From: Candidatus Latescibacterota bacterium
GTDB lineage: Bacteria; Latescibacterota; UBA2968; GCA-2709665
Assembly: GCA_965248435.1 (NCBI GenBank)
Contig: OZ252100.1
Coordinates: 3,840,001 to 3,904,000, forward strand
Reading direction: 5' to 3'
Length of the DNA: 64,000 nt
In this document: piece after piece, positions 10,872 to 29,622 of the stretch
Layout: every line of letters starts with the position of its first letter
Numbering within the stretch: the first letter of the stretch is position 1
Notes under the pieces: model-generated
What the model was told of the DNA's origin: nothing
Seen by the model: the letters and a program-made list of their open reading frames with translations, nothing else
The model's database searches: none
Position numbers and translations under genes: made by a program

Positions 10872-10883
10872 CGGAGGTCGGCC

Positions 10884-14203: not shown

Positions 14204-14345
14204 GTGTAACACGACGGGCTGCGGCTCGTGGCATTCGCCCCTCGCCCAACCTGCCTCATCGCGGTCACGGCACTTGCTCAAGAAAATCGTGGGTGGCAAG
14301 CGCCGCGCCCGCTTGGCAGGTTCGCAGCCCGCGAGAACGTTACAC
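14204..14345 (+). repeat. attC-like site A2 (long form)
   Basis: GTGTAAC, outer stem cgggctgcg/cgcagcccg, inner aacctgcc/ggcaggtt, gagaacGTTACAC. Confidence 0.9.
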
Positions 14346-14408
14346 GCCAGCAGGTTCTTCCTGAAACAACCGATAGGATGATGTTCCTGATGGAGTTCCC
14401 TTGGAGCA

Positions 14409-15299
14409 ATGATGAAAGACTCTTTTTCCGTATCTGACATCCCGCCCGAAGAAATCCAAGAGGTAATCGAGGTCACCAACGACTATCTAGTTGCGTTGGC
14501 GGCTGCGTCGAGGGATCAAGATGGGCATGTAAACGTGAACTGGACTGCTAGCGGCATGCTGGCTACCATAGGCGGTGAGCCCACTATCATCACTGCCCGA
14601 CATGTCGCTGAGGCTCTGGAAAGAGAAGAACCGGAGAGTGTTAAGATCTGGACTGACTTCAGAAAGGAAAGTGCAACGGCAGTAATGTCTTTAGACATTA
14701 CGCATGTACGCTTTGTGAAGTCTGCAAAACCGGCGTCAGGGAAGGCCATTGATGGCCCTGACCTGGCATTGATATTACTTCCGGACCACTTGGTTGGATC
14801 AATATCGGCCACCAAGGGCTTCTACAATCTGGACAAACGGCGCGACGCCGCGCTCCAGCAGGAGGGACCGCCCACGACAGGCTTCTGGCTTGCTCGTGGC
14901 TTTCCGTACGAACTCGTGACCGGGATGGATGGCGCCGAGGGTTTCTGCTTCTACTGCCTCAACCACGTGTGCTACCTCAGCGGATCCCACGAAGAGGCTG
15001 GCCATGATTACTACGACCTGGAGTTCGATTTCACATTGATGGACACCCTATCAGCCTCCGGCGAGCATCCAGAGTTGAAGACCAACCAGGGAATGAGCGG
15101 TGGTCCTATATGGCACGTTAAGGTTCACGGCGACTCGGAGGGCGTACCACGAATAAAGGACCCGCAGGGAGATATCCTTCTCTCCGGAGTGATCTTCTAC
15201 GAGTACGACCTAGAGAAGGAAAGCAAGAAGTTTCGCTGTCACGGAATCCGGTCGGTCTATAAAGCGCTCTACGATCTCCTCAAACAGCAGACTGACTAA
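14409..15299 (+). CDS. Cassette 3: trypsin-like serine protease, no signal peptide
   Basis: IITARHV, DLALI and GMSGGP give a His-Asp-Ser triad. Confidence 0.75.
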   Translation: MMKDSFSVSDIPPEEIQEVIEVTNDYLVALAAASRDQDGHVNVNWTASGMLATIGGEPTIITARHVAEALEREEPESVKIWTDFRKESATAVMSLDITHVRFVKSAKPASGKAIDGPDLALILLPDHLVGSISATKGFYNLDKRRDAALQQEGPPTTGFWLARGFPYELVTGMDGAEGFCFYCLNHVCYLSGSHEEAGHDYYDLEFDFTLMDTLSASGEHPELKTNQGMSGGPIWHVKVHGDSEGVPRIKDPQGDILLSGVIFYEYDLEKESKKFRCHGIRSVYKALYDLLKQQTD

Positions 15300-15316
15300 C
15301 CCTTTGGTGCGCCGGC

Positions 15317-15455
15317 GTGTAACACGAGCACCCACGGCTCCGGCGCATACGCGCCTCCGCTGAAACCTGCCTCCCGCCTTACCAGTCTGCTCTGATAGAT
15401 GCCTGACGGCCTTCGTGAAGAGTCGGCAGGTTCGTGGGTGCCGAGAACGTTAAGT
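15317..15455 (+). repeat. attC-like site A3
   Basis: GTGTAAC, gcacccacg/cgtgggtgc, gagaacGTTAAGT. Confidence 0.9.
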
Positions 15456-15484
15456 GAAACCCGACGAAGGGGTTTACGCAAATC

Positions 15485-16132
15485 ATGCAATCTAAGCGGG
15501 CTGTGGTCCTCCAGCGCATCGCTGCAGAAATCTGGGGGAACCTTACTGACAATGTGATAAAAGTCGCGATCGATGGTGTAGATGGCGCCGGCAAGACGAC
15601 ATTTGCAGACGAGCTCGCTGAAATCATCGAAAACCGACCTATAATCCGTGCATCAGTAGATTTCTTTCACAATCCCCGAGCAATCAGATACCGACAGGGA
15701 AAAGATTCGCCGTTAGGTTTTTTCGAAGACTCGTACAACTACGAGGAACTTCTCGGCTTACTTCTCAATCCTCTAAGTCCTGGAGGGTCTGGGCGCTTTC
15801 GCACTAAGGCATTCGACCACAGGACCGACGCCCACGTTGAGTCACCCGAACTGTACGCGGAGCCAGAGTCGATTCTCTTGTTCGACGGGATTTTCTTGCA
15901 TAGACCTGAACTTTGGGACATATGGGATTATTCAATCTACTTGGACGTGAATTTCGAGAACTCAATTCCGAGATGTGCTCTCCGTGGAGAGGGAAATCCG
16001 GATCCCTATGCCGAGCAGAACCGCCGCTACATAGAGGGGCAGAAAATTTACATCCAAAACTGCCAACCCAGTGAACGGGCAACAATAATCGTCGACAACA
16101 ATGATTTGGATGCTCCCTTTATCGTTTCTTAA
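15485..16132 (+). CDS. Cassette 4: uridine-kinase-like P-loop kinase
   Basis: VAIDGVDGAGKTT Walker A; LLFDGIFL; RRYIEGQ. Confidence 0.8.
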   Translation: MQSKRAVVLQRIAAEIWGNLTDNVIKVAIDGVDGAGKTTFADELAEIIENRPIIRASVDFFHNPRAIRYRQGKDSPLGFFEDSYNYEELLGLLLNPLSPGGSGRFRTKAFDHRTDAHVESPELYAEPESILLFDGIFLHRPELWDIWDYSIYLDVNFENSIPRCALRGEGNPDPYAEQNRRYIEGQKIYIQNCQPSERATIIVDNNDLDAPFIVS

Positions 16133-16166
16133 TGCTGGTACGGCGGGCGTATCCGCGTCGGACTTC

Positions 16167-16294
16167 ACTTAACACGTCCACTTGCGCTGCGGCGCATTCG
16201 CGCCTTGGCCTGACGGCAACCCGCCTTCCTCCTTCGCTGCTTCGCAGCTTCGGAGGGCAAGTCGGCGGGTTCGCAAGTGGCGGGAACGTTATAT
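16167..16294 (+). repeat. attC-like site A4
   Basis: ACTTAAC, ccacttgcg/cgcaagtgg, GTTATAT. Confidence 0.9.
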
Positions 16295-16321
16295 GCAATG
16301 CAGCCAGGAGAGGGTTTTCGA

Positions 16322-17044
16322 ATGGAGAGTCGATTGGATTCGGACCATCCAGATCCCATCCTTGCAGAGCAGGTAGAGTACTACCGTGCTCGGGCTCCAG
16401 AGTACGATGACTGGTACCTCCGCAGGGGGCGATACGATCACGGGCAAGAGCTGAATGACCGATTCAGGGCAGAAATCAACACCGTTGAAACCGAGGTGAG
16501 GGCTCTTGCGAATGTGGACAGGATTTTGGAACTGGCTGCTGGTACCGGCTGGTGGACGAGGCTCTTTCGGGAGACAGGTGCCAGAGTGACGGCCGTGGAT
16601 TCTTCGCCGGAGGTCCTAGCAAAGAACCGGGGTAGGAATGGAGACGAGAAGATCGAGTACGTAGAGGCCGATGTACTCAGTTGGACGCCGCGCGGAAGGT
16701 ATGATCTGGTCTTCTTCGGCTGCTGGCTCTCTCATGTCCCCCCCGACCAGTTTGAGACCTTCTGGAATAGAGTTGGAGAATCTGTGAAACCGGGAGGCAA
16801 AGTGGCTTTCGTGGACACACTGCGAGAAGGAATCAAGACCGTGGCGGCGCGAGACCATCACCGGAGAGAGAATGAAGGCGACATCACCGAACGCTACCTA
16901 AACGACGGAACGCCGTTCAAGATTTACAAAGTCTTCTACCAACCAGAGGAGTTGACAGAACGGCTACAACGACTGGGATGGGAAGTCAAGGTCAAGACCA
17001 GCGGAGAGTACTTCCTTTTCGGATCGGGTGAAAGGGAAAACTAA
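16322..17044 (+). CDS. Cassette 5: class I SAM-dependent methyltransferase
   Basis: ILELAAGTGWW motif I; YDLVFF..WLSHVP. Confidence 0.85.
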   Translation: MESRLDSDHPDPILAEQVEYYRARAPEYDDWYLRRGRYDHGQELNDRFRAEINTVETEVRALANVDRILELAAGTGWWTRLFRETGARVTAVDSSPEVLAKNRGRNGDEKIEYVEADVLSWTPRGRYDLVFFGCWLSHVPPDQFETFWNRVGESVKPGGKVAFVDTLREGIKTVAARDHHRRENEGDITERYLNDGTPFKIYKVFYQPEELTERLQRLGWEVKVKTSGEYFLFGSGEREN

Positions 17045-17088
17045 CCCCCACAGAAATGTGTTTTCTCTCGGCAACCTGGCTGCACTGC

Positions 17089-17175
17089 ATATAACACGAC
17101 GGGCTGCGGCTCCGGCCATTTGGCCTCCGCACCAACCTGCCTGCGGCAGGTTCGCAGCCCGCGAGAACGTTATAG
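17089..17175 (+). repeat. attC-like site A5 (short form)
   Basis: ATATAAC, cgggctgcg/cgcagcccg, GTTATAG. Confidence 0.9.
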
Positions 17176-17252
17176 GAAATGCCAGCAGCTCAACTTACTG
17201 GGTGGTTGTTAAGAATGTTCGGAACTATTGAATCGAAAGAGGTGCGCTGAAC

Positions 17253-17906
17253 ATGAAAGTGCCCTACGCAGACTCCGGTGTATGGGACCGAAGGTTCGAG
17301 CAAGAAGGTGATTTAGACTGGGGAGGGCTTTGGACCGATCCGTTCATAGAACTTTTTCGGGAGAACGGTTGCCATTCGATTCTGGATCTGGGGTGTGGGA
17401 CTGGAAACGATGTACTCCGCCTGGCAGAGGAAGGGTTTCAAGTCACTGGACTGGATTTCTCTGAGCACGCTCTTAATCTAGCGGAGCCTAAGAGGATTCA
17501 GGATGCGACATTCATTCGGGCGGACATGGTCGATGGGCTGCCGTTTGTTGATAAGCGCTTCGATGCTGCAATGGCGAACGTAGCGCTTCACATGTTCGAC
17601 CGTGGCACCACAGACACTGTCATTCAAGAAGTAAGAAGGATCCTCCGTCCGGAGGGAGTGTTCATCTTTCACGTCAACTCTATTGATGATCGAAGGCTGC
17701 GTGAGAAGCGTAGGAAACCCGAGGAGGAACTGGATAAGAATCTTATCAGAGAAGAAGATGGACAGACCGTTCACTTTTTCACCCAGACCGAACTCAAGTT
17801 ACTCTTTGCTGGATGGTCCCAGTTACAACTTGACCACTTGGAGATTCCGCATAGGGAAACGGGTGAACCATTCAAGAGGATGTGGAGAGGAGTGGCCAAG
17901 AATTGA
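17253..17906 (+). CDS. Cassette 6: class I SAM-dependent methyltransferase
   Basis: ILDLGCGTG; GLDFS; RILRPEG. Confidence 0.88.
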   Translation: MKVPYADSGVWDRRFEQEGDLDWGGLWTDPFIELFRENGCHSILDLGCGTGNDVLRLAEEGFQVTGLDFSEHALNLAEPKRIQDATFIRADMVDGLPFVDKRFDAAMANVALHMFDRGTTDTVIQEVRRILRPEGVFIFHVNSIDDRRLREKRRKPEEELDKNLIREEDGQTVHFFTQTELKLLFAGWSQLQLDHLEIPHRETGEPFKRMWRGVAKN

Positions 17907-17943
17907 GGATCTAACCAATTAGAAACATGACTGCTGGCACTTC

Positions 17944-18037
17944 CTATAACACGACCACTTGCGCTGCGTCGCTTTCGCTCCTTGGCCTTTACGGCAACCC
18001 GCCTTTGGCGGGTTCGCAAATGGCGAGAACGTTATGC
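17944..18037 (+). repeat. attC-like site A6
   Basis: CTATAAC, ccacttgcg/cgcaaatgg, GTTATGC. Confidence 0.9.
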
Positions 18038-18143
18038 GCCAATGCTGTTTCTGTGGTGGAAACTGCAGACTAGGGAGCAGACCCCCAGGGCAATTGTTTG
18101 TACACCCAGATTGCCTATGATGGTGTAACGAGCAAGAAAGTTC

Positions 18144-18680
18144 ATGACAAAGATCAAGAACCTTCGAGATGTGGGACTCGGCATCAACGAAATCCTAGTG
18201 GAAAGCATGCTTAGACAGTGCGCTCTCTATCGCAGCGGCGCCCTACCTGATTCTCTGCAAAAGGGTGATCTGCCCTGGGTTGAGACCGTTATTAGCCTGA
18301 GACGGGAGGCCGATCCCGAACTCGAAAACATCAAACAGCTGCAAGTTGCACCCAATGGCTCGATGAACAACTACGTTTTCACGGCTCAGGTCTTCGAAGA
18401 GTGGATTCAGAGACTGTATAGGACACTAGCGGAGTTTACTGTCTGGCCTGTTCTCCTGCATTGTACAGGAGGCAAAGATAGAACTGGAGTTGGCGTCGCC
18501 CTTGTTTTGAGAAACCTTGGCATCTCTGAGGACGCCATTGTGGAGGAGTATATGCGGGGTGAAGGCACTCGCTACCCAGAAAGCATGGAGAACCTCCTAA
18601 AAGAACTCCCTCGGCTGTCACATCTAAGAATGGATGAACAACAAAAGGAAACGATCGGAAGTGAATTGCTGGCGGACTAG
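18144..18680 (+). CDS. Cassette 7: protein tyrosine/dual-specificity phosphatase
   Basis: NLRDVG, LYRSG, HCTGGKDRTG (CX5R). Confidence 0.88.
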   Translation: MTKIKNLRDVGLGINEILVESMLRQCALYRSGALPDSLQKGDLPWVETVISLRREADPELENIKQLQVAPNGSMNNYVFTAQVFEEWIQRLYRTLAEFTVWPVLLHCTGGKDRTGVGVALVLRNLGISEDAIVEEYMRGEGTRYPESMENLLKELPRLSHLRMDEQQKETIGSELLAD

Positions 18681-18766
18681 ACGTCGGGTTCGGATAGAGG
18701 CAAGACCGAGAAAGTCAGGCAAACGACTGCTCTTGTATTTCTGTCGAGACACAGAAACAGCACAGC

Positions 18767-18911
18767 GCATAACAACGGCACCCCCGGCTTCGGCGCTTAC
18801 GCGCCTGCGCGCAACCTGCCTGGCGCTGTCACGGCGCTTGCAATAAATCAAGACCCTGAGGGGCAAGCGCCGCGCCAGCTTGGCAGGTTCGTGGGTGCTT
18901 GACCGTTAAAC
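18767..18911 (+). repeat. attC-like site A7
   Basis: GCATAAC, gcaccc/gggtgc, GTTAAAC. Confidence 0.88.
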
Positions 18912-18933
18912 GACATAAGAAAAATCAATCACT

Positions 18934-19923
18934 ATGGTAGACAGTTGGAACAAGGATTCTAATACGGAAGTGCTCAACAAAATCGATCAATTCATATTTG
19001 AATACCCTGAATACACTCGCGAAGGAGTTGATCTGCGTCCCCCAATGGGTACGAACCGGGTTGTATTCGCACGCCGAGGGCAAGATAAGGTTGTGTTCAA
19101 AGTATTCTGTGAAGAAGAACGCAAGGAGCGCGAGTGTTTCGCCCTACGCCACTGGCATAAGACGGGTCTGGTGCCCCATATTATCTGGGATGATGACCCC
19201 ACTATGGTCATTCTGTCCTGGATACCCGGATTGACGATGGGCGAAGCGCGGGAGCAGGGTGCAACAGACGCTGAATTTTGCACCGTCTATCAACAAATTG
19301 GCGAAGCGTTTGCGACGCTGAATACAGTCCCTCTAAGTCCCGCCGATCAAGCAGCTTTTGAGAATCGCTTCTATAGTGACTTAGGCCCCCTTGATTCGTA
19401 TTTGGAGCGCATTCTAGAGTTAGCCAAGGGCGTGCATGTCCGAGATCCAGATTTCCAAGATGTTTTTTGGGGGGAAAGTCTCGATTTTATCGAAGAGCAA
19501 CTAAACAAGATTCTAAACCAACCCCGTCTTCTCTATCATCAAGATGCCGGAAATCTGCACATCAAAGGAGAACGCTTGATTGGTTTTTTCGATTTGGAGA
19601 TGTGTCGGGTCGGTGGTTTCGCCATGCAATTGGCAGCCGCGCCTGGAGTATTTTACGAAGACGGAAGTAATCCAGAAGAGCTACGAAAAGTGCTCTGGCG
19701 CGCATTTCGCCGAGGTTGGGAAGATGCGATAGGCAATCCCTTAAGTTTCGATGATCTCGAAGCGATTACAGCCGCCAACCACTTGCTAAACTGGCGTGAG
19801 ATTACTCGCTATTTGAGCTACGATGGTACTCCTGGAACAGGCTTTTCTTGGGCTAACCCGGCTGATCCCGTAAGGTATCGAAACCGACTTGAACCACTGG
19901 CACGCGTACTCCAAACACAATAA
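18934..19923 (+). CDS. Cassette 8: APH/choline-kinase-like phosphotransferase
   Basis: VVFKVF; HQDAGNL (HxDxxN-like); FFDLE. Confidence 0.7.
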   Translation: MVDSWNKDSNTEVLNKIDQFIFEYPEYTREGVDLRPPMGTNRVVFARRGQDKVVFKVFCEEERKERECFALRHWHKTGLVPHIIWDDDPTMVILSWIPGLTMGEAREQGATDAEFCTVYQQIGEAFATLNTVPLSPADQAAFENRFYSDLGPLDSYLERILELAKGVHVRDPDFQDVFWGESLDFIEEQLNKILNQPRLLYHQDAGNLHIKGERLIGFFDLEMCRVGGFAMQLAAAPGVFYEDGSNPEELRKVLWRAFRRGWEDAIGNPLSFDDLEAITAANHLLNWREITRYLSYDGTPGTGFSWANPADPVRYRNRLEPLARVLQTQ

Positions 19924-19944
19924 ATGATGAAACTATCTTACGTC

Positions 19945-20046
19945 GTTTAACAGGCCACACACGCTGCGGTCGCTACGCTCCCTTGGCCTACGGCACAGCG
20001 GCTCCGTTTCACTGCGCCGCCGTCGTGTATGGCCGGACCGTTAGCC
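19945..20046 (+). repeat. attC-like site A8 (divergent sequence)
   Basis: GTTTAAC, ggccacacacg/cgtgtatggcc, GTTAGCC. Confidence 0.8.
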
Positions 20047-20102
20047 GCAAGCGGCAGAGAAACACCAGATTGGGCACAAGGGATCTTAGGACTAGAGAAA
20101 AG

Positions 20103-20498
20103 ATGGAAGACCGGGCTTGCATCGCATTCATCGAAGACGGGCAGATTCTGATGGTTCAACAGCTCGACGGGGGGAGGATGGTCTGGACTTTTCCGGGCGG
20201 AGGGATTCGGAATGGAGAGAGTCCCCGTGAGGCAGCCGTTCGCGAGGCCAGGGAGGAAGTCAACGTATATGCAAAAGTAGGCCGAATCCTATATCGAGGC
20301 CCCAGGAGTACCACCAAAGGAGAGTATTACTGCTTTGAGGGACGAATCGTCAGAGGAGAAGTGAGTCTGGGGAAGGATCCTGAATTGCCGGATGATGCAC
20401 AGGAATTGCAGGATGTCCGGTGGTTTCCAATTACAGAGGTCAGGGATCACTTTGAAGTTTCGAGAATCTTGGGATCTATAGTCCGGAATGAAGGGTGA
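20103..20498 (+). CDS. Cassette 9: NUDIX hydrolase
   Basis: PGGGIRNGESPREAAVREAREEV Nudix box. Confidence 0.9.
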   Translation: MEDRACIAFIEDGQILMVQQLDGGRMVWTFPGGGIRNGESPREAAVREAREEVNVYAKVGRILYRGPRSTTKGEYYCFEGRIVRGEVSLGKDPELPDDAQELQDVRWFPITEVRDHFEVSRILGSIVRNEG

Positions 20499-20551
20499 TG
20501 GCGTGCCCTTTACGCATCTGCGTGATGGCTTCGCCTGATTCGACCGCCAGC

Positions 20552-20693
20552 GGCTAACACGGCACCCCCGGCTCAGCGCCTGTCGGCGCTTCGGCCCAAC
20601 CTTCCTTCGCGGTCACGGCGTTTGCTTCAAAGACAAAAGCTGGGCAACCGCCGCGCCCACTCGGCAGGTTCGTGGGTGCCGAGAACGTTAGAT
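20552..20693 (+). repeat. attC-like site A9; IS110 inserted directly in its right core
   Basis: GGCTAAC, cggcaccc/gggtgccg, gagaacGTTAGAT. Confidence 0.9.
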
Positions 20694-20706
20694 ACTCTCT
20701 TGGTGG

Positions 20707-21699
20707 TCAAGCCATTTTGTAGAACTTTTCTCCGTCGAAGTCCTGGTTGTGTTGGAGAATACCCCAGATGCAGTGAAGCAGCTTTCGCATCACCGCGATG
20801 ACCCCCTGCATCGGCTTCTTGCCTCGACTGATGAGTTTTTCGTAGAACGCCTTCACATTGGGCTGCTGTTGAATGGCCACCAGCGCTGGCATATATAAGG
20901 CGGTTCGTAAATACTTATTCCCCGCTTTGGAGATCACTCGGCGCTTGTGAATCGTGTCTCCCGATTCGTGGGGTCGTGGATCCAGGCCTGCGTAGGCCAC
21001 CCATTGGGCAGGCTTCATATCGGCAGGCAACATCGCAATCTCTGCCAGAATGCCCATCGCGCTGGTTGCTGCGATCCCGTGAACGGAAGTCAATCGTGCG
21101 AACTTCTCGCGCAGAGTGGCTTCCCCCTCAATGAGCTCCAGAGCCCGCGCTTTCAGCTGCTGCACACGCGCTTTGAGATGTTCAACATGCTCTTCGATGT
21201 CCAAGGAGACGGCAGAGGTGACCGATGGCCGCTGCGTGGAAGCATGAAGCCGGTTTCCTTCCCGGTTGATCTCGACTTTGATCTGCGCGATCCGGCGTGT
21301 AATCGCCTGCAGGTCAAGCACTTCATCACGGGGTGCCTGCCACGTCTGGAAGGGCATCCGCTGCACATACTCCAATGCCACTTCCGCATCGATCGGGTCG
21401 GTTTTCCCCCGTTTCATCAAAGCCTGGGAGAAATTCCTCAGCGCTCTGGGGTTGATTACCATCACCTGAGTCTTCGGATGCCGATGCAACGCCAACGCCA
21501 CCTCAAAACTATAGATGCCTGTGGCCTCGACTCCCACTCGAGCCGGCTTTCCCCGCTTTGTCGCCCACTTGATCAATCGACGGTGCCCTTCGCCTGTGTT
21601 GGGAAATCTTGCCAGTGGATACGCTTTCCCTGAGCGACGGATCGCGACCACCAGCTCCCGGGCTGAGACGTCTACCCCCAACAGATTCTCTTGCTTCAT
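20707..21699 (-). CDS. IS110 DEDD recombinase/transposase
   Basis: GVDVS, GVEATG, KTDPIDA (DEDD); YAGLDP..ESG..ISKAGN..LRTALY; AAGGAGGG RBS before ATG 21699. Confidence 0.93.
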   Translation of the reverse strand: MKQENLLGVDVSARELVVAIRRSGKAYPLARFPNTGEGHRRLIKWATKRGKPARVGVEATGIYSFEVALALHRHPKTQVMVINPRALRNFSQALMKRGKTDPIDAEVALEYVQRMPFQTWQAPRDEVLDLQAITRRIAQIKVEINREGNRLHASTQRPSVTSAVSLDIEEHVEHLKARVQQLKARALELIEGEATLREKFARLTSVHGIAATSAMGILAEIAMLPADMKPAQWVAYAGLDPRPHESGDTIHKRRVISKAGNKYLRTALYMPALVAIQQQPNVKAFYEKLISRGKKPMQGVIAVMRKLLHCIWGILQHNQDFDGEKFYKMA

Positions 21700-21719
21700 G
21701 ATCTCTCCCTCCTTATTTG

Positions 21720-21900
21720 TACCTCTGGTCCCCCGACCTTGCACCTGGCCTACCAGCCTTGTGATACAGACTCTCGGGTCTCGGATACTCCTCGGCATGG
21801 GCCAAGAAGGCGGGGGGCCTATCTAACGTCCAAGGTCAATGCCTTCATGCGCAATCCGGCCTCCCCAGAGGTCTTCTTCGAACCAAGATAATCTACAAAT
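21720..21900 (-). ncRNA. Putative bridge RNA in the IS110 non-coding end (limits approximate)
   Basis: Contains segments matching the target (21821-29, 21847-56) and the IS circle junction (21784-90, 21758-62) in the order and orientation expected of bridge-RNA guides. Confidence 0.7.
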
Positions 21901-21956
21901 AGATCATATTTTCAAGATACAAGATGCAATCGTGGCCCTGTTACGAAGAGGGTTGA

Positions 21957-22790
21957 ATGCTTAGAATCGGGATTTCTGCCAGTACAATTCTTTCGGATTC
22001 AGATAGACTGGATGAAGTATTCTGGGAAGGGATAGACCACATAGAAATAGGGGCACTTTCCTCGCATCGTGATCTGACTTATCTACTCAGAAAGGCACAA
22101 GACAAACGGATAAGTGTCGGCTTCCATTCGCCCGTTTTCGCGGGAGGCAGCAAATACGACCTCTTGGTACCGGTAGACGGGGAGATCGAGAGTGCGTGGA
22201 GCCAAATCGAACAGGAAATGGCCTTGGCGCAGGATAACGGAGTAGAATATGTGCTGATGCATTTCCCGTACTTCGAAACCTCCTCTACACCAAACTCTAT
22301 TTCAAGAATGGAATGGGGTCTGGAACGCCTTCGCTCGTTGCAGGAGAGATACGCAACGAGATTAGTGTGCGAACCCAAACTCGGTGACAACCGAAATGCC
22401 GGTGCAATCGAGATTCTCCGGCGCTATTCAGTGGAGAAATGGGCAAGCTGGGGTATCGCTATGTGCTGGGATATGGGCGATTATCTGTTGGCGACGGGCT
22501 CTTCGGACGAATCCGTGCTGGAGCTGCGGAGGCTGAGTAGCATAATCGAGGTAGTCCACGTGCATAACGTACAGGTGGAATCCGGAAAGTATTTCTGGGT
22601 GCCCATACACCCCTCGCACGAGGAAGACGATGGGTTTTTTCGCATTGCACCAATCTTGTCGGAGATGAAAAACATGGATGCTGTGCTCGTTTGGGAGCAC
22701 ACTCCCCATTTCACCCCGAGTGAGGAGTTTGCAGTTGAGGGATTCAAATGGGCAGTAAACTTGCTTGGATTTGGCTCACGCTCTAGTTGA
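21957..22790 (+). CDS. Cassette 10: TIM-barrel protein (xylose isomerase/AP endonuclease 2-like)
   Basis: GFHSP, LMHFP, VCEP, WDMGD, VHVHN, WEH metal-ligand pattern. Confidence 0.7.
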   Translation: MLRIGISASTILSDSDRLDEVFWEGIDHIEIGALSSHRDLTYLLRKAQDKRISVGFHSPVFAGGSKYDLLVPVDGEIESAWSQIEQEMALAQDNGVEYVLMHFPYFETSSTPNSISRMEWGLERLRSLQERYATRLVCEPKLGDNRNAGAIEILRRYSVEKWASWGIAMCWDMGDYLLATGSSDESVLELRRLSSIIEVVHVHNVQVESGKYFWVPIHPSHEEDDGFFRIAPILSEMKNMDAVLVWEHTPHFTPSEEFAVEGFKWAVNLLGFGSRSS

Positions 22791-22807
22791 AGCGGGGCCA
22801 CGACAGC

Positions 22808-22896
22808 ATCTAACACGACGGGCTGCGGCTCCGGCGCATTCGCGCCTCCGACCCAACCTGCCTGCGGCAGGTTCGCAGCCCGCGAGAACGTTATGC
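22808..22896 (+). repeat. attC-like site A10 (nearly identical to A5)
   Basis: ATCTAAC..cgcagcccgcgagaacGTTATGC. Confidence 0.9.
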
Positions 22897-22942
22897 GGCA
22901 TCGGCACTTCAAAATCTTTCTGGTTAACCATCTGGACCTTTG

Positions 22943-23491
22943 ATGATGATCTCTATATTCCGGGTAATTCTATTCGCCTCTATTTTCATCCATCTTCTGG
23001 GCGCTAGGACCAATGCACTTTGGGACGAGGCGCCTCTCCTCGATAGGATCCTAAGAGCAGAAATGGTCGTTGTGGGCAAGCTAGTCAACGTCGAAAACAA
23101 CGCGATCCTTATCAGACGTCCTGGACCGAGGGGAGAGAAGGGATTTCAAGTGCATCTTGACATAGGGTCTATTCAAGCCACAAATGTGCTCTACGAAAGG
23201 GGGCCACCCGGCGCTTCCCCGAAAGCTCGGAAACTTCCGGCCAACTTTCCATTTGCCTGCCATAGCCGAAGCCAGCCTCAATCTGGCGGACTCAGGGCTT
23301 GGAGTTTTTCTTATTTGAATTTCGAAGAAGGTGATGAGGGGGTTTGGATTCTTAACCAGTCTCATTTTGTCGGGTACCTAGCAGTCACGTATCCCCACAA
23401 CTTCCTTCCCATCGATTCGCTGATAGTTGTAGAGAAGACGATAGACAAATCAGTCAAAGCGACCAACGTTGACAGTTTGCCGGGAAACTAG
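22943..23491 (+). CDS. Cassette 11: hypothetical exported protein
   Basis: ORF fills the cassette; hydrophobic N-terminus. Confidence 0.6.
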   Translation: MMISIFRVILFASIFIHLLGARTNALWDEAPLLDRILRAEMVVVGKLVNVENNAILIRRPGPRGEKGFQVHLDIGSIQATNVLYERGPPGASPKARKLPANFPFACHSRSQPQSGGLRAWSFSYLNFEEGDEGVWILNQSHFVGYLAVTYPHNFLPIDSLIVVEKTIDKSVKATNVDSLPGN

Positions 23492-23538
23492 CTTTGAGAA
23501 CATCATACTTAGAAACGGACACTAACCGCACCAACGCC

Positions 23539-23651
23539 GCATAACACGGCACCCTCGGCTCAGGCCATCCGGCCTTCGCCCAACCCGCCTTCGCGGCTTA
23601 CGCCGCTTCGGTGGACAGGCGGCAGGTTCGTGGGTGCCGAGAACGTTATGC
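23539..23651 (+). repeat. attC-like site A11
   Basis: GCATAAC, cggcaccc/gggtgccg, GTTATGC. Confidence 0.9.
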
Positions 23652-23714
23652 GGCAAGTCGGTCTTGGTACAATGGTATGAGGCCATAGGGAGAAAGCACA
23701 AACCGGAGAGACCT

Positions 23715-24605
23715 ATGCATTCGATTGACCTGAAGGGAAAAGTTGGTTTGGTCACCGGCGTTGGCAACAAGTGGAGCCTGGGTTGGGCAATTGCCCAAAT
23801 TCTCCACTCCGCAGGAATGCTCCTTGTTTTTGGGTATTCCAGACAGAGAAGTCGAAAAGCAATCGAGAAGCTCCTGACCGAATCGGGATGGGATAATGTG
23901 GTACTTCCAGATGTGATCTACGATGCCGAGGACGATACTCAGATTGAAAGACTCTTCAACTTTGTGGAGGATGAGGTTGGTGCTTTACATGCGTTCCTTC
24001 ACTCGATAGCCTTTGCACCTCCAGAGGCACTGCAAGGCGAGTTCGGTGATACATCCCGTGAGGCTTTTCGGACCGCTCTGAATGTCAGTACGTTTTCTTT
24101 CTTGAAGATGAGTCGATGTGCCTCAGAATTGATGGTTGATGGCGGTTCCATTCTCACTCTGAGTTTCTTGGCTTCACAGAGAGTGTTTCCTCACTACAAC
24201 GTAATGGGAACTGCGAAAGCCGCGCTCGAACACTCTGTCAGACAGCTAGCTTTCGAGTTAGGACCCAGAAACATCAGGGTGAACACCATTTCGGCTGGAC
24301 CAATAAGCACGGCGTCTGCCCGAGGCGTAAAGGGATTTGGAGGATTTCATCACTCCTACGCTGAGAATGCACCCCTGCGAAGAAATGTAAGTCAGGAGGA
24401 AGTCGGTAAGGCTGCTCTCTTCCTTCTTAGTGATCTGTCGAGTGGAGTCACCGGGGAAGTGCTTCATGTGGATGGAGGATACAATGTCCTGGGAGCGCCC
24501 CTTGGAGAATTTCCAAAGGCAGATCAACGGCAAAAAAGGGGAGAAGCATGCTCCGGCTCTCCCCCAAACTCCTTCGATGAGAACCAAAGCCGACTCACCG
24601 CATAA
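23715..24605 (+). CDS. fabI: Cassette 12: enoyl-ACP reductase
   Basis: GLVTGVGNKWSLGWAIA, LHSIAFAP, YNVMGTAKAALE, RVNTISAGPI, VTGEVLHVDGG; the stop TAA lies inside TAAC of site A12. Confidence 0.9.
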   Translation: MHSIDLKGKVGLVTGVGNKWSLGWAIAQILHSAGMLLVFGYSRQRSRKAIEKLLTESGWDNVVLPDVIYDAEDDTQIERLFNFVEDEVGALHAFLHSIAFAPPEALQGEFGDTSREAFRTALNVSTFSFLKMSRCASELMVDGGSILTLSFLASQRVFPHYNVMGTAKAALEHSVRQLAFELGPRNIRVNTISAGPISTASARGVKGFGGFHHSYAENAPLRRNVSQEEVGKAALFLLSDLSSGVTGEVLHVDGGYNVLGAPLGEFPKADQRQKRGEACSGSPPNSFDENQSRLTA

Positions 24606-24685
24606 CAAGCCGTCTGCGGCTCGGGGCAGTCGCCCCTCGCTCAACTTGCCTTCGGCAAACTCGCAGAACGGCCAGAACGTTAACT
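24600..24685 (+). repeat. attC-like site A12
   Basis: GCATAAC, gccgtctgcg/cgcagaacggc, GTTAACT. Confidence 0.85.
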
Positions 24686-24713
24686 GCAATGGCGGTGGGG
24701 GGAAGCAGGAGTG

Positions 24714-25586
24714 ATGAAATTGAAAGCGAACGTCATGAACGAAGCGAGTCGCTGGCGACTTGCCCTAGCAAAAAGGGTTTCGGAGATCTATTGCGAACAT
24801 GCCGATGTAAAGGCGGTAGCAGTGGGTGGGTCAGTTGCACGTGGGATTGCTGATGCCTATTCAGACATCGACATGCCAGCGTTCTGTAAGGAATTGCCTT
24901 CTGAGGATTCCTTAGAAGCTTTGTCGGGAAGAATCAAAGGAGCGGTCTGGAGACCTTTTCGCAAATCAGATATGGCTATAGCTTCAGAACTCTATATCGA
25001 CAGTGTTCGAGTAGATATGCCGTTCATTAAGATTGATAGAATGCTAGATGTTCTAGATCAAGTTGTGGAACAGCACAGTACTGATCCCTCCAAACAGAAG
25101 TCAGTTGGAGGAATTCTTGACGCAATTCCGATTCATGGCTTTGATCTAATCGACAAATGGAAGGCCAAGGCTGCCGAATATCCCAATGAACTCGCGAAAT
25201 CAATGGTGAAGAAACATTTACAGTTCGAGCCTCTATGGGTACCAAGGGAATACGCTGTTTTGCGAGAGAGCAAACTTTTTGAGTGTGAGCTAATATGTGC
25301 TTATGCCAAAAATATTCTCGGTGTACTCTTGGGGCTCAATCGAATCTATCACCCAGGTGACCTTAAGAGATTGGATTGGCTTGTAGGGAGAATGTCAATT
25401 GTTCCACGTGACCTGCTGTCTCGTCTGAGAGAAGCTTTCCAGGCTAATCGGAAGGATGTTATAAACGATCTCAGTAAACTAATCGAGGAAATAATCGACT
25501 TAGTAAATACGAAGGAAGTTAGGAAATCACTTAATAGTTCGCCGTATGTTTGTACCATTCCACCCACGGTTGAGATTTCCGATTAG
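24714..25586 (+). CDS. Cassette 13: Pol-beta-superfamily nucleotidyltransferase
   Basis: VGGSVARGIADAYSDID. Confidence 0.8.
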   Translation: MKLKANVMNEASRWRLALAKRVSEIYCEHADVKAVAVGGSVARGIADAYSDIDMPAFCKELPSEDSLEALSGRIKGAVWRPFRKSDMAIASELYIDSVRVDMPFIKIDRMLDVLDQVVEQHSTDPSKQKSVGGILDAIPIHGFDLIDKWKAKAAEYPNELAKSMVKKHLQFEPLWVPREYAVLRESKLFECELICAYAKNILGVLLGLNRIYHPGDLKRLDWLVGRMSIVPRDLLSRLREAFQANRKDVINDLSKLIEEIIDLVNTKEVRKSLNSSPYVCTIPPTVEISD

Positions 25587-25634
25587 AAAAGCGCAGGCCA
25601 CCGTTTTGTAATGGAGAGTCAGCACCGCCACAGC

Positions 25635-25779
25635 AGTTAACACGGCACTCCCGGCTCAGCGCCTGGTTGCGCTTCGCCCAACCTTCCTTCGCGGTCACGG
25701 CGCTTGCTTTAAAGATAAAATGCGGTTTGCAACCGCCGCGCCCGCTTGGCAGGTTCGCAGCCCGCGAGAACGGTTAAAT
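25635..25779 (+). repeat. attC-like site A13 (outer arms do not pair; chimeric)
   Basis: Left arm cggcactccc, right arm cgcagcccg. Confidence 0.88.
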
Positions 25780-25886
25780 GACATGGGATGAAATGAGACT
25801 ACATTCTTGCGGTATATCCTCAGAATAGAAGGAGATATGCTGCAAATTTCGTGATTCACTAATGAACGGGCAACAAGACAAGGAAT

Positions 25887-26786
25887 ATGATGAAAGAACT
25901 TGCTGCAAGAGCCTTGGAAGATATCGAGCACTCAGTACCTCATGGGATATGGGGTGCTCACAACGGCTGTGCGATCCTCGCGGGCATATTTCTGATCGAA
26001 GAGAACTTGATCGAGGAAGGTGCGAAGGAAGCGGTGAAGCAATTGCTCAATTCGAGTAGAGTTAAGAGGGACCAGCAAGGAAACGAAAGGCGCCTCATCA
26101 GCTTGGGTGATTTCAGAGAAAGATTGATATCTTGCCTAGCGCTGGACCCGGAGCAAGTAAAAGAAATCGGCCACGATGTAATCTTCTCTTCGTACGTACT
26201 CAAGGCTTTGGATTTCCTTTCGATCTCACCCTGGGAGTCGTTGCTGGAGAGCATGGTAGAGTTGATCGGCGCGATTAAGGAATCCACGCCAGGTTGGATC
26301 ACCGTGAATGGAGAAAATCAACCGAGAGAACTGGACAAAGTTGACTCAAGTCTGCCGACAAACTACTGGCATGCCTTCGCGGCCTTAGATAGGCCCATCC
26401 AAATGGAAATAGGAGATATGCAGTTAGGACATGTTCTTACTCACGGGCATGCGATCGAGATGTTCAAATTGTACGGAAACAAGAAATCAGCGGTTGCATT
26501 TGATATAGCCTATCGCAAGCGATTGCACGGACTGCTATTGGCAAACAGTGAACAGAAAGAAAGAACAGCGCTTCCTCGTAGAAGGTTAGATCCACGCCTC
26601 GCGAGCTATTGGAGGCACGTGAAAACCAACGGCGACATGGAAGGCCATGTTTACAAGTACGCCTTCAGCTTCCTGGATCTGAATAGGCATGATCTGCGGA
26701 CCGAGGCATTCGAGGCATTCGGAAGGGTTGTTTGGCCCAACAAGCCGCTGGAGACAACGGCGACAAACGATGCGTCTAAGCCCTGA
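25887..26786 (+). CDS. Cassette 14: hypothetical protein with His-rich motifs
   Basis: 299-aa ORF filling the cassette; GAH, IGHDVI, LGHVLTHGH, EGHVYKY. Confidence 0.65.
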   Translation: MMKELAARALEDIEHSVPHGIWGAHNGCAILAGIFLIEENLIEEGAKEAVKQLLNSSRVKRDQQGNERRLISLGDFRERLISCLALDPEQVKEIGHDVIFSSYVLKALDFLSISPWESLLESMVELIGAIKESTPGWITVNGENQPRELDKVDSSLPTNYWHAFAALDRPIQMEIGDMQLGHVLTHGHAIEMFKLYGNKKSAVAFDIAYRKRLHGLLLANSEQKERTALPRRRLDPRLASYWRHVKTNGDMEGHVYKYAFSFLDLNRHDLRTEAFEAFGRVVWPNKPLETTATNDASKP

Positions 26787-26841
26787 TGTTAGTAAGAACT
26801 TGGCTCAACTATCAGTTTGACCAGAGATAGTATCCCACGTC

Positions 26842-26933
26842 ATTTAACACGCCCACTTGCGCTGCGGCGCATTCGCGCCTTGGCTTTTGGCAACCCGCCT
26901 GCAGCGGGTTCGCAAGTGGCGAGAAGGTAGGAC
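26842..26933 (+). repeat. attC-like site A14 with degenerate right core (GTAGGAC)
   Basis: ATTTAAC, ccacttgcg/cgcaagtgg, then gagaagGTAGGAC instead of gagaacGTTA. Confidence 0.8.
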
Positions 26934-26959
26934 GCCAAGTCTGTACAGGCGGGTAGCCT

Positions 26960-28267
26960 ATGGATGAAGAGATCTTGAATGAGTCAATCGTATTCCTTGG
27001 TCTATGTGAGAAAGTCCAAACGGTTCCCGATGGCCATCCGGACTTTCTGAAACAGAACATACTAGGACTCAAGACTACTGTCTTCTCTCCCTTCTTTCCT
27101 ATGGGAATGAAAGGGTTTAGTCTTGCCTTCTGTATGAAGTGGCGGGATGTGCCATTTTCTGCCAAGATTAGAGGCTTGCATCCCGACGGGAAGGAAGCGT
27201 TTCGTATCGAATTCAACGCTGAATTTGAGCCACATGAGTCCGGACAGCGAAAGAAACCAGGTGAGGCCAGCCAATCAAGGTTTAGTGTAATTGCATCAGA
27301 CGATCCGCCATCTTGGGCATTTGTGACTTTCCCTGTGCCTGAAAAATCAGTGGTGGCAACGCCGGGTTTTATGAAAATCTGTGCCGCAGTTGCCGAGGAG
27401 GAGTCAGTCATTGGCCAGGTAAGATTTGTGCATGCGAAGCCTGCCCCACTCACTCCAGATAGAATCGACGCGATCAAGAGCAACCCACAAGCAGCGAAAA
27501 CAGTCTGGTACACAATCGGGTGCACGGAGTGTTCGGACGCTATCAAAGCCTACGCTGGGATCGGTCGCAACATGGATTCGGAAGAAGATGGCTGGATTTG
27601 GCAACATGACCTACCTAAGACGTTCAAATGCAAATGTGCGAAAACGAGGTTGGATCTATCCTATATGCGCGATGGTCTTCACGGCCTCTTGGGTTCCATC
27701 TATAGCATAGGCGAGGACGTAGAGTTCACCCGTCTCTACGAAAGAAGCGCTCTTGAGTCAATTTCAGGCAAGTATTGGAAGATACTGCGAGATTCGGAAA
27801 GGGAAGAAGATCTGCAGAAGTTCATCGAGGGAGCTCCAGCACTTTTGCAGTGTTTTAGTCCTGCACGGATCTTTCACAAGAGCCCCATCCTGAGTAAATA
27901 CAGTGTTGATTTCGCCATTCTCGACACTCAGGGGCACCTAATCCTTATTGAGATAGAAAGACCAGGAATCCGCTTGCTTCGTAAGGATGGCGGAATGGCG
28001 GCCGAACTCGGACATGCTTTCACTCAAGTAAGTCAATGGTTACTGGAATTTGACTTGCATCGACAGGCTTGCCTGGAATGTATTGGGGTCGACCCAAAAG
28101 AGGTTGTCCAAGTTAGAGGTGTAGTTATCGCAGGACGAGAAGCCGAGTATCCGGCAGAACATTTGGCCAGGCTAAAATGGGAAGACCGAGGTAAGATAAG
28201 CTTCCTTACATACGACGATCTTGGCCGGAGCTATATCAGTCTTATTCGAAGGTTCCATGACCTGTAG
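26960..28267 (+). CDS. Cassette 15: Shedu-like (DUF4263) PD-(D/E)xK nuclease with a long N-terminal region
   Basis: C-terminal EEDLQKFI, VDFAI, LIEIERP, AFTQVSQW, VVIAGRE, FLTYDDL. Confidence 0.78.
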   Translation: MDEEILNESIVFLGLCEKVQTVPDGHPDFLKQNILGLKTTVFSPFFPMGMKGFSLAFCMKWRDVPFSAKIRGLHPDGKEAFRIEFNAEFEPHESGQRKKPGEASQSRFSVIASDDPPSWAFVTFPVPEKSVVATPGFMKICAAVAEEESVIGQVRFVHAKPAPLTPDRIDAIKSNPQAAKTVWYTIGCTECSDAIKAYAGIGRNMDSEEDGWIWQHDLPKTFKCKCAKTRLDLSYMRDGLHGLLGSIYSIGEDVEFTRLYERSALESISGKYWKILRDSEREEDLQKFIEGAPALLQCFSPARIFHKSPILSKYSVDFAILDTQGHLILIEIERPGIRLLRKDGGMAAELGHAFTQVSQWLLEFDLHRQACLECIGVDPKEVVQVRGVVIAGREAEYPAEHLARLKWEDRGKISFLTYDDLGRSYISLIRRFHDL

Positions 28268-28283
28268 ATCGTGCAGACTCGGC

Positions 28284-28427
28284 ATCTAACACGCCGGGCT
28301 GCGGCTCCGGCGCATTCGCGCCTCCGGCCCAACCTGCCTTTCGCGTTCACGGCGCTTGCTTGGCGACGAACAAAAGGGGCAAGCGCCGCGCCCACGGGCA
28401 GGTTCGTGGGTGCCGAGAACGTTAAAT
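28284..28427 (+). repeat. attC-like site A15 (chimeric)
   Basis: Left arm cgggctgcg, right arm cgtgggtgccg. Confidence 0.88.
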
Positions 28428-28507
28428 GCAATTGCGGCTCACAGACAAGCCGGCGACGCGTCCTGCGCCGCAAACAAAACTAGAGCTACGGAAGTAGGAG
28501 TACACTC

Positions 28508-29422
28508 ATGGCTGAACAAACCGAAACTGAATCACCCGAATGCAGTAATGTCGCCCCTCTCGTGGGATTCTGGGGCTGTGATGCGGAAACGGACGAGATA
28601 CCTGTTGGGTTTGATGTCGCACTCGTCAGGAATCCGAGGGTGGATGTTGATGAGGAATGGTCAAAGAAGATTGGGACGTCGGCTACCGATGAGCTGCGAA
28701 GAGCTCAGTGGGCACTTGAACACAGGTATCGTGGTGAGCCGGGAATCCATTTGGGATCAAAGGAGGATCTTTCGGATCAGTTGTTGCAGACTGCGTTGCT
28801 TGCTCTTTGGATCACTAAGCCCACCGGAGCCAGGATCACGCACCTGCTGAGATACCGTACCCCCTGGCACTCTGCGAATGCAGCATCTGTCGCGTTCTAC
28901 CGAGGGGATTCCTTTAGACCTAATCGTCGATATGAAAGGACTACTTTCGCCCCCGACGATCTGGATGACCTCGGGACAGTGTTCAAGGGCGTGAAATCAA
29001 TATTCGACATGAAGAAGGGACTCAGGCGAGCACTCTACCATCTGAGCGGGGCCTTACACTTGTGGTTCTGGGATGCTCGATTCGCGATGTTCACAGTCGT
29101 TCTCGAAAGCCTGTTCACCACAGACGCACAAGAGATCACGCACAAGATCAGCGAACGCATCGCCTTCTTCCTTAAGGACACTCCAGCAGAGAGGCGATGT
29201 GTGTTTGATGACGTAAAGGAAATCTACCGTACAAGATCGAGAATTGTCCACGGACTCGATCTCAAGGCTACTGAAGAACAAACCGTCAGCCTCTTGGCGG
29301 AACTAGAGGCGCTTGTTCACCACGTTTTGAAGAGGATTTTGAAAGATTCAAAGCTGGTAGAGGAGTTCTCTGGCAATGCCAAGCGACGTGAACAGTTCCT
29401 AACTGACCTTGTGTTCTCCTAA
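28508..29422 (+). CDS. Cassette 16: ApeA-like HEPN domain protein
   Basis: LESLF..ITHKISERIA..IYRTRSRIVHG (RxxxxH). Confidence 0.8.
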   Translation: MAEQTETESPECSNVAPLVGFWGCDAETDEIPVGFDVALVRNPRVDVDEEWSKKIGTSATDELRRAQWALEHRYRGEPGIHLGSKEDLSDQLLQTALLALWITKPTGARITHLLRYRTPWHSANAASVAFYRGDSFRPNRRYERTTFAPDDLDDLGTVFKGVKSIFDMKKGLRRALYHLSGALHLWFWDARFAMFTVVLESLFTTDAQEITHKISERIAFFLKDTPAERRCVFDDVKEIYRTRSRIVHGLDLKATEEQTVSLLAELEALVHHVLKRILKDSKLVEEFSGNAKRREQFLTDLVFS

Positions 29423-29479
29423 GTCTTTATGGAGCTTGGCCAACTTGCCTTCGTAGCAAGCTGGCCGGGCCGCAACAGC

Positions 29480-29622
29480 ATTTAACACGAGCACCCCCGG
29501 CTTCGGCGCATTCGCCCCTCGCCCAACCTGCCATTTCACTGTCACGGCGCTTGCTTAAGAAAACCGTGGGTGGCAAGCGCCGCGCCAGCTTGGAAGGTTC
29601 GCAGCCCGCGAGAACGTTAGCC
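29480..29622 (+). repeat. attC-like site A16 (chimeric)
   Basis: Left arm gcacccccg, right arm cgcagcccg. Confidence 0.88.

Follow-up and report, generated by a model that had tools for sequence, protein, structure and literature searches.

The window analysed here is a stretch of 64,000 nucleotides (C1:3840001-3904000) from the genome of a Candidatus Latescibacterota bacterium (G000; 5.67 Mb in two contigs, the assembly being 97% complete). Within it, an insertion sequence (IS) of the IS110 group splits one of a series of repeats that resemble attC, the recombination site of integron gene cassettes, and the non-coding left end of the IS appears to encode a bridge RNA whose guides fit this type of site. 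The IS proper covers positions 20692-21921 on the minus strand (1230 bp) and runs from its left end, TGTATCTTG..., to its right end, ...AGAGAGTAT; on sequence comparison, these ends are common to seven related lineages. The recombinase gene (20707-21699, minus strand) encodes 330 aa from an ATG at 21699 that is preceded by AAGGAGG, and a longer frame of 363 aa is also present in the list of open reading frames (ORFs). The protein carries the Pfam domains PF01548 (DEDD_Tnp_IS110; E 5.5e-23, 81.9 bits) and PF02371 (Transposase_20; E 9.5e-20, 71.2 bits), and thus the DEDD RuvC-like N-terminal domain and the C-terminal Tnp domain with a catalytic serine that mark the IS110 group. Its only relatives of solved structure, in a phmmer search of the PDB, are ISCro4 (E 1.4e-41) and IS621 (E 3.5e-38). 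The motifs GVDVS, VEATG, KTDPIDA and ESG align with D11, E60, D102/D105 and S241 of IS621, the catalytic residues as named in Hiraizumi 2024. No plasmid match to the recombinase exceeds 47% identity. The gene is preceded by about 222 nt of non-coding DNA, and its stop codon is followed by only 15 nt. The original prediction for this locus, an IS110-type element with the upstream non-coding RNA (ncRNA) layout of the IS110 group, is therefore borne out by the domains and the arrangement. A repeat search of the element ends revealed no terminal or subterminal inverted repeats; the sole inverted repeat linking the two ends is that of the right target guide with the right junction, described below.

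The element is flanked by two copies of a 2-nt core, AG on the plus strand at 20690-20691 and 21922-21923, which reads CT in IS sense (minus strand). At the right junction (20690-20691), CT is found in all three full copies of the element in this genome and equals the core of the donor; at the left junction (21922-21923), it is CT in the window copy and AT in the two others. Beyond the cores lie the right target half (RT; 20685-20689, minus strand), AACGT in IS sense and identical in all three copies, and the left target half (LT; 21924-21930, minus strand), ATTGCAT in IS sense, which represents the first bases of the downstream cassette. In IS sense, the window copy thus joins its target as ATTGCAT-CT/TGTATC on the left and GAGTAT-CT/AACGTTCTC on the right. 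Insertion at the four nucleotides AGAT, as first proposed, does not hold: the core is 2 nt long, and the AGAT repeat is coincidental, being absent from the other two copies. The interrupted target is the attC-like site of the upstream cassette (20552-20691, plus strand), which consists of an R''-like box GGCTAAC (20552-20558), L''/L' arms CGGCACCC...GGGTGCCG, the triplet AAC and an R' box, GTT-AG, split by the IS.

Besides the three full copies, which are 98-100% identical and located at 1.445, 2.067 and 3.861 Mb of C1, the genome contains one remnant consisting of the left end only. Each full copy lies in a different cassette array. All three split the R' box of an attC-like site at one and the same point and face the same way, with the IS sense strand equal to the bottom strand of the array. 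The two further insertions in other arrays are what the original prediction led one to look for. In IS sense, their junctions read ATGGCTC-AT/TGTATC on the left and ..CT/AACGTTCCC on the right for one copy (L002, L015), and ACTGCGC-AT/TGTATC and again ..CT/AACGTTCCC for the other (L003, L020).

The right flanks of the three copies enter a repeat with the array-strand frame GTTCG(Y)(R)..G(A/G)GAAC/GTTA-NNN, of which the genome holds about 55 sites in eight clusters (79 matches to the frame regex, about 55 of them true sites by eye). The cluster in the window comprises ten attC-like sites at approximately 14320-29600, spaced 755-4776 bp apart; the seven further clusters lie elsewhere in the genome. 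Single co-oriented ORFs separate the sites, as judged from the ORFs beside the IS, and this arrangement is that of a cassette array. The repeats carry R''-like (..CTAAC) and R'-like (GTTANNN) boxes, and in two intact sites the bottom strand can adopt an imperfect hairpin whose spacer stays unpaired (z -3.25 and -2.41); boxes and folds are the reason why these repeats are called attC-like. Integron integrases cross over at G/TT, and the core used by the IS, on GTT-[AN], lies 2 nt from this presumed crossover point.

A stricter regex in IS sense returned 42 sites, or 39 after removal of the three occupied ones. The right half AACGT is present in 39 of these 39 unoccupied sites, although the selecting regex required it. 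Their consensus in IS sense is ATTGCGT-AT-AACGT, with T at -6 in 38 of 39 and C at -3 in all 39. The empty site had originally been considered confirmed by the inverted repeat of cassette 10. That cassette alone does not confirm it; the reconstruction is backed by the 39 unoccupied sites and by a contig of sequencing run X7, from another study, with the uninterrupted sequence AACGTTAGAT/GCAATGG. Among the contigs examined, none spans an empty version of the exact window site.

Turning to the non-coding left end, the body of the putative bridge RNA extends over 21712-21880 (minus strand, approximate ends), with a target-binding module followed by a donor-binding module. Its structure was derived by RNAalifold from an alignment of 11 ncRNAs, and in each of the two modules an internal loop separates the outer stem from the inner hairpin. 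In the 31 curated pairs (340 cells), 91.8% of the cells can pair, versus 34-52% when the partners are slid by 1-3 columns. Compensatory changes on both sides were found in 11 of the 31 pairs, and none of 500 shuffles matched the covariation score. The sides of loop 1 are ATGCGCAAT, containing the left target guide (LTG), and CTAACGT, containing the right target guide (RTG), whereas those of loop 2 are GATACTC (left donor guide, LDG) and CTTGT (right donor guide, RDG).

The four strings on which the bridge-RNA proposal was built are all present, namely ACGTTAGAT at 20685-20693, ATGCGCAATC at 21847-21856, GATACTC at 21784-21790 and CTTGT at 21758-21762. The proposed order LTG-RTG-LDG-RDG and its orientation are retained as well, with the four matches placed in the two covariation-supported internal loops of the consensus, as the suggested folding test demanded. 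The strand rule given in Durrant 2024 states that the LTG runs in the same sense as the left target and hence pairs with its bottom strand, while the RTG is complementary to the top strand at the right target. This rule is obeyed here: the LTG has the same sense as LT, the RTG is complementary to RT, and the second loop matches the joined ends of the element.

The individual guides, all on the minus strand, can be read as follows. The LTG, AUUGCGC-AU (21847-21855), comprises the 9 nt directly 5' of the inner hairpin. Its register was set by relatives in the genomes G022 and G065, in which the 9-mer before the inner hairpin equals the left flank plus CT exactly. The string at 21847-21856 does lie in loop 1 as predicted, but its gapped alignment to the flank was wrong. 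The RTG, ACGUU-AG (21823-21829), is joined to a handshake guide AU(A) (21820-21822), and the whole segment (21820-21829) forms the 3' side of the first internal loop. The LDG, GGAGUAUCC (21783-21791), reads in the sense of the left donor and the core that follows it, (A)GAGTAT-C(T). The RDG region (21756-21765) includes AUCACAAG (21758-21765), complementary to the core and right donor CTTGT. It is followed, at the position of the donor-loop handshake guide, by GC (21756-21757), complementary to positions 6-7 (GC) of the target that the LTG encodes. As regards the core, the LTG encodes AU, the RTG and RDG encode CT, the LDG has C at the first core base, and the donor has CT.

The match that drew attention to this RNA is the exact reverse complementarity of 21821-21829 to ACGTTAGAT. 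This 9-mer occurs twice in the window, versus 0.18 occurrences expected, and none of 100 shuffles reached two. According to the repeat search, it extends to a perfect 10-nt complement between 21820-21829 and the right junction TAT-CT-AACGT (20685-20694). It is composed of RT (5 nt), core (2 nt) and handshake (2-3 nt), so that only seven letters bear on the target. The AU that follows the core of the RTG is complementary to the ..AT end of the IS itself. In IS621, A81/U82 form the handshake guide of the target loop, and once the strands have been exchanged they pair with positions 6-7 of the donor (Hiraizumi 2024). By analogy, the AU that ends the 9-nt match most likely belongs to the handshake guide and hence says nothing about the target. 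The interpretation of the match as a target guide therefore stands for the letters of RTG and core, and most likely not for the last two.

The RTG, core included, matches its target at 7 of 7 positions in all three copies. For the LTG, the matches are 5/7 plus 1/2 core bases in the window copy, and 5/7 plus 2/2 and 6/7 plus 2/2 in the other two. The left guide is not arbitrary in sequence, since ATTGCGC-AT equals the cassette-side consensus of the unoccupied sites at eight of nine positions. Among the 769 NT-AACGT sites of the genome, LT agrees with the LTG at 4-6 of 7 positions in 37 of the 39 unoccupied attC-like sites, and at 0-3 positions in 658 of 727 other sites. The original view that the cassette side is variable and merely tolerated has to be given up, as this side is targeted too. 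Judged from these sequences, the guides of the target loop follow the consensus on each side of the junction between attC and cassette.

Relatives provide an independent view of the guides. A survey of 100 related genomes identified elements with recombinases of 54-59% identity in eight, several of these elements being present in many copies. A search for related loci in genome contigs with the single protein confirmed none of 82 pattern hits. The relatives identified have in common the donor AGAGTAT-CT-TGTAT(C/T) and the RNA frame GGCCG-[9 nt]-(G/A)AAGG..CCTTG-(N)-[7 nt]-AUA-GGCCCCCC. In two Latescibacterota metagenome-assembled genomes (MAGs; G057 and G074, 55-59% identity), the copies likewise lie at CT/AACGT: the position within the site is unchanged, and the arrays belong to the attC-like repeat family described above. 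G074 also shows a joint change of donor end (GAGAAAAC) and LDG (GGAAAACC). In a 10-row midpoint-rooted tree, too small to separate ancestry from re-targeting, the three attC-targeting recombinases do not form one clade.

The association of guides and flanks was examined across 24 insertions from eight lineages; L013, with a mis-called left end, and the truncated copies L014, L019 and L035 were excluded, and L025 and L028 fell outside the regex. With cognate guides, the match averaged 4.17 of 5 for the right target half and 7.46 of 9 for the LTG, versus 2.29 and 4.60 with non-cognate guides. At the level of lineages, the sum was 94.19 of 112, and none of all 14,833 derangements (mean 56.58, maximum 68.95) reached it.

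In the genomes G022, G026 and G034 (L012-L034), related IS110 elements number 7-21 copies per genome and lie within series of heptamer repeats of the CTC(N)CCT type. Two of these genomes, G026 and G034, have an LTG with a terminal UU and a 3-nt overlap (CTT) with the RTG, which leaves the crossover ambiguous by one base.

The IS also occurs at about 98% identity, with other flanks, in contigs of sequencing runs from three studies. In run X5, its left end abuts a locus that still carries CT-AACGT.

Taken together, these findings make it probable (at roughly 0.88 by our estimate) that the element is an IS621-type insertion sequence of the IS110 group, active now or until recently, with a bridge RNA that guides it to attC-like sites. 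The RNA encoded by its left end would contain two internal loops. Of these, the donor loop (LDG GGAGUAUCC, RDG ..ACAAG) would recognise the joined ends of the element, AGAGTAT-CT-TGTAT, and the target loop (LTG AUUGCGC-AU, RTG ACGUU-AG) the point where an attC-like site meets the next cassette. Read in IS sense, this junction would be ATTGCGY-(A/C)T-AACGT, which corresponds to the bottom strand of the array. Strand exchange by the recombinase would then take place at the 2-nt core. This core is part of the R' box (GTT-AN) and lies 2 nt away from the point at which an integrase presumably crosses over. Expression of the RNA, a circular intermediate, a junction promoter and the chemistry of strand exchange are inferred by analogy from the IS621 literature.

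Two putative promoters fit into this scheme. A promoter-like site inside the left end (21888-21915, minus strand; TTGAAA, 16 nt, GATTAT) is a consensus match only, with one found versus 0.8 expected, and could drive RNA synthesis from integrated copies. At the right end, TTGACC (20705-20710, minus strand; read by eye) overlaps the stop codon as a candidate -35 box, and relatives have TTGAC(N) at the same distance from the end. IS621 reconstitutes a promoter at its circle junction (Hiraizumi 2024), and in the present element TTGACC, 17 nt and TATCTT across the corresponding junction would, by the same logic, constitute a promoter formed only in the circle. In the contigs from sequencing runs that bear the IS, no junction of right end and left end was found.

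Several observations weigh against this interpretation. The RNA folded as a single sequence is no more stable than shuffled sequences (z -0.63); this fold spuriously paired parts of the guides, and the consensus fold was used in its place. No Rfam match was obtained for 20500-22100 at E values up to 10, with the bridge-RNA content of Rfam 15 left unchecked; the one small RNA match of the scan, located within the recombinase ORF, was attributed to chance. The two target guides differ at the first core base, where the LTG encodes A and the RTG encodes C. In the occupied sites, the LT matches are imperfect (5-6 of 7), and IS621 tolerates mismatches poorly in screens (Durrant 2024). The insertion in run X5 is at a non-attC locus; in G000 this locus is empty and has the sequence ..AACGTTAG/ACGCTGCACG.. 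at that point. Metagenomic elements that share the RTG of the window copy lack a clearly attC-like context, so that the RTG ACGUUAG alone does not imply attC targeting. Finally, a TIGR02249 search of the 97%-complete assembly for an integron integrase gave nothing above the cut-off (best 104 bits versus 265). The arrays are accordingly similar to clusters of attC sites lacking integron integrases (CALIN), and the term attC-like refers to structure alone.

The metagenomic elements come from a pattern scan that yielded 70 stretches, 15 of them with the full target-loop frame and three close to it, the rest being chance matches. Loci with RTG ACGUUAG and the frame are L043, L055, L057, L061, L068, L076, L080-L083, L086, L092, L095, L096 and L107. 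Many belong to soil-type records, and they have the left end TGTATATT and LTGs of the type YTGNSGC-CT; L107 matches its flank perfectly (7/7 plus CT).

An improbable alternative is that the hairpin structure of attC mainly sets the site, as it does for integron integrases or in the stem-loop 'gate' of ISPpu10, and that the RNA matches are secondary. The targets are indeed strongly structured (z -3.25 and -2.41), the LT matches are imperfect, and for one IS110 element a stem-loop in the target reportedly contributes to specificity (preprint 10.64898/2026.03.19.712850). However, the guides covary with the flanks also in lineages that insert into unstructured targets (the heptamer repeats; G022, G034), and the insertion in another strain at a non-attC locus still bears CT-AACGT.

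Another alternative is that the element belongs to the attC-targeting group of IS1111 (ISPa21, ISKpn4 and ISPst6 type), in which a seekRNA is encoded downstream of the transposase. That elements of this kind exist, as the original prediction stated, is documented: RNA-guided attC targeting by seekRNA has been published for IS1111 members (Siddiquee 2024), and in a survey of clinical integrons an 'IS110' at attC proved to be the IS1111-group element ISPa21 (GES-5 preprint). The present IS shares with this group the DEDD-type transposase, the wider IS110 family, RNA guidance and the orientation-specific insertion at one end of attC. It differs in the position of the RNA, which is downstream and accompanied by subterminal inverted repeats in IS1111 (Siddiquee 2024). 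Here, the non-coding region precedes the gene, the stop codon lies only 15 nt before the end of the element, and a search for terminal or subterminal inverted repeats was negative. With its two loops the RNA follows the architecture of IS621, the nearest solved proteins are IS621 and ISCro4, and, measured against the published description of IS1111, membership in that group is highly improbable. Still less credible are chance matches, a hitch-hiking conserved repeat or an unguided preference for AACGTT, since, although AACGTT is palindromic, the repeat family abundant and the single-sequence fold not significant, the 9-mer is over-represented (2 versus 0.18 expected), the matches lie in covariation-supported loops, no derangement (0 of 14,833) reaches the guide-flank score, donor and LDG change together in G074, and shared ancestry of IS and flank is unlikely because the flanks differ between copies.

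With attC-directed bridge-RNA guidance as the preferred explanation, the closest known systems are IS621 and ISCro4. The likeness includes the same two protein domains with aligned catalytic motifs, an upstream ncRNA with two internal loops in the order LTG-RTG-LDG-RDG and the same strand rules, a 2-nt core with CT in the donor, and a -35-like box near the right end. The AU at the handshake position of the target loop is that of wild-type IS621 (A81/U82). The donor had been called nearly that of IS621. Positions 6-10 and 12 are the same as those in the text of Hiraizumi 2024, and the comparison is limited to these positions. The proteins are similar at phmmer level only (E 1e-38 to 1e-41). The host differs as well, relatives of its lineage being labelled Candidatus Latescibacterota. 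Further differences are that the LTG of the present element encodes AU at the core while RTG and donor have CT, and that its target is an attC-like site. IS621 targets REP-type sites.

Elements of the ISPpu10 and ISPpu9 type are similar in that they are IS110-group members that reportedly home to abundant hairpin-forming intergenic repeats (REP, stem-loops). The repeat concerned here is a gene-cassette recombination site, so that insertion alters a potential integron substrate. Full-text literature searches, with the supplements of bridge-RNA papers and Tetu & Holmes 2008 outside their scope, found no description of an IS110-group element with upstream RNA at attC; attC-type targets might already be included in those supplements on natural IS110 targets.

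The differing cores of the three copies bear, though weakly, on strand exchange. CT is found at both junctions of the window copy, whereas L002 and L003 kept AT at the left junction and have CT at the right. Their sites are of the GTT-AT-G class, which is common among native sites (GTTATAG 9, GTTATGC 6), so that the original core was AT, as encoded by the LTG. Exchange of the top strand with a cut 3' of the core yields AT on the left and CT on the right (Hiraizumi 2024), and top-strand insertion has been reported in the Sun 2025 preprint. The AT-left/CT-right junctions are consistent with such an insertion; with two events, the outcome 2/2 would be expected by chance in 25% of cases under random segregation of a heteroduplex.

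Two other explanations of the AT/CT junctions were rejected. L002 and L003 might have been ..CAT-CT-AAC targets that lost CT in a 2-bp deletion, but native GTT-AT-G.. sites are common. The spacing [AC]T[GT][GT]C-NNN-T, present in 26 of the 39 empty sites, agrees with L001 and L002 in their inferred form but with neither of the deletion models, and with L003 in no form. An AT core in the donor is also discounted, since ..TAT-CT-TGTAT is shared by all eight lineages and both RDG and LDG match CT.

The element represents a known kind of RNA-guided mobile element and leaves current knowledge of the mechanism as it stands. Its significance would be that the IS110 group proper, besides IS1111, has members homing to integron-type recombination sites, and that a single genome offers about 40 candidate sites with which the guide can be compared directly. 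The left guide, which fits a degenerate consensus, would be a natural example of mismatches accepted in vivo by a bridge RNA. For the annotation of cassette arrays in uncultured phyla, IS copies would mark attC sites and may freeze or remodel cassettes. A more far-reaching scenario, which we regard as doubtful, is that a set of Latescibacterota IS110-group elements are specialist parasites of cassette arrays with a split core (LTG AU, RTG AG), that the IS and the next cassette can be moved by an integrase as a composite cassette, and that the AT-left/CT-right junctions record top-strand-only insertion. If this were true, the split core would give entry to sites with a variable first core base (GTT-AT, GTT-AG and so on), and a rebuilt R' box GTTAGAT upstream of the element could keep the IS and the next cassette mobile by an integron integrase.

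Some further observations concern the sites and their surroundings. The right end of the IS places ..AT beside the core (20690-20693, and likewise in L002 and L003), so that insertion leaves GTTAGAT on the attC side. This is a canonical R'-type box, and it is left irrespective of the original one (GTTATGC in L003, GTTATGA in L002). The first 12 or so bases of the cassettes are semi-conserved (GTTA-NNN-G[CA][CA]A[TG], often then G or C), for example at 18029-18045 and 22889-22905, and this conservation extends well beyond the usual 7-nt R' box. The remnant (L004; C1:4835981-4836236) retains the left end and about 15 codons; it has the LTG AUUGCGC-UU, altered RDG bases and the left junction CTTTCGC-CC, and is either an older copy or a copy with a different guide.

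The genome also contains six near-identical gene pairs, at 10020-12068 (plus strand) in the window and at approximately 1.449, 2.072, 4.652, 4.844 and 5.172 Mb of C1. Each consists of a gene for a 283-aa tyrosine recombinase (PF00589 and PF13495) followed by one for a 394-aa IS91-family Y2 transposase (PF04986 and PF14319). The six-copy tyrosine recombinase was considered as an integron integrase and rejected, because its TIGR02249 match is split into two pieces of about 104 and 93 bits, versus a cut-off of 265, and because it is paired with the Y2 transposase. Four of the six pairs are located within a few kb of cassette arrays.

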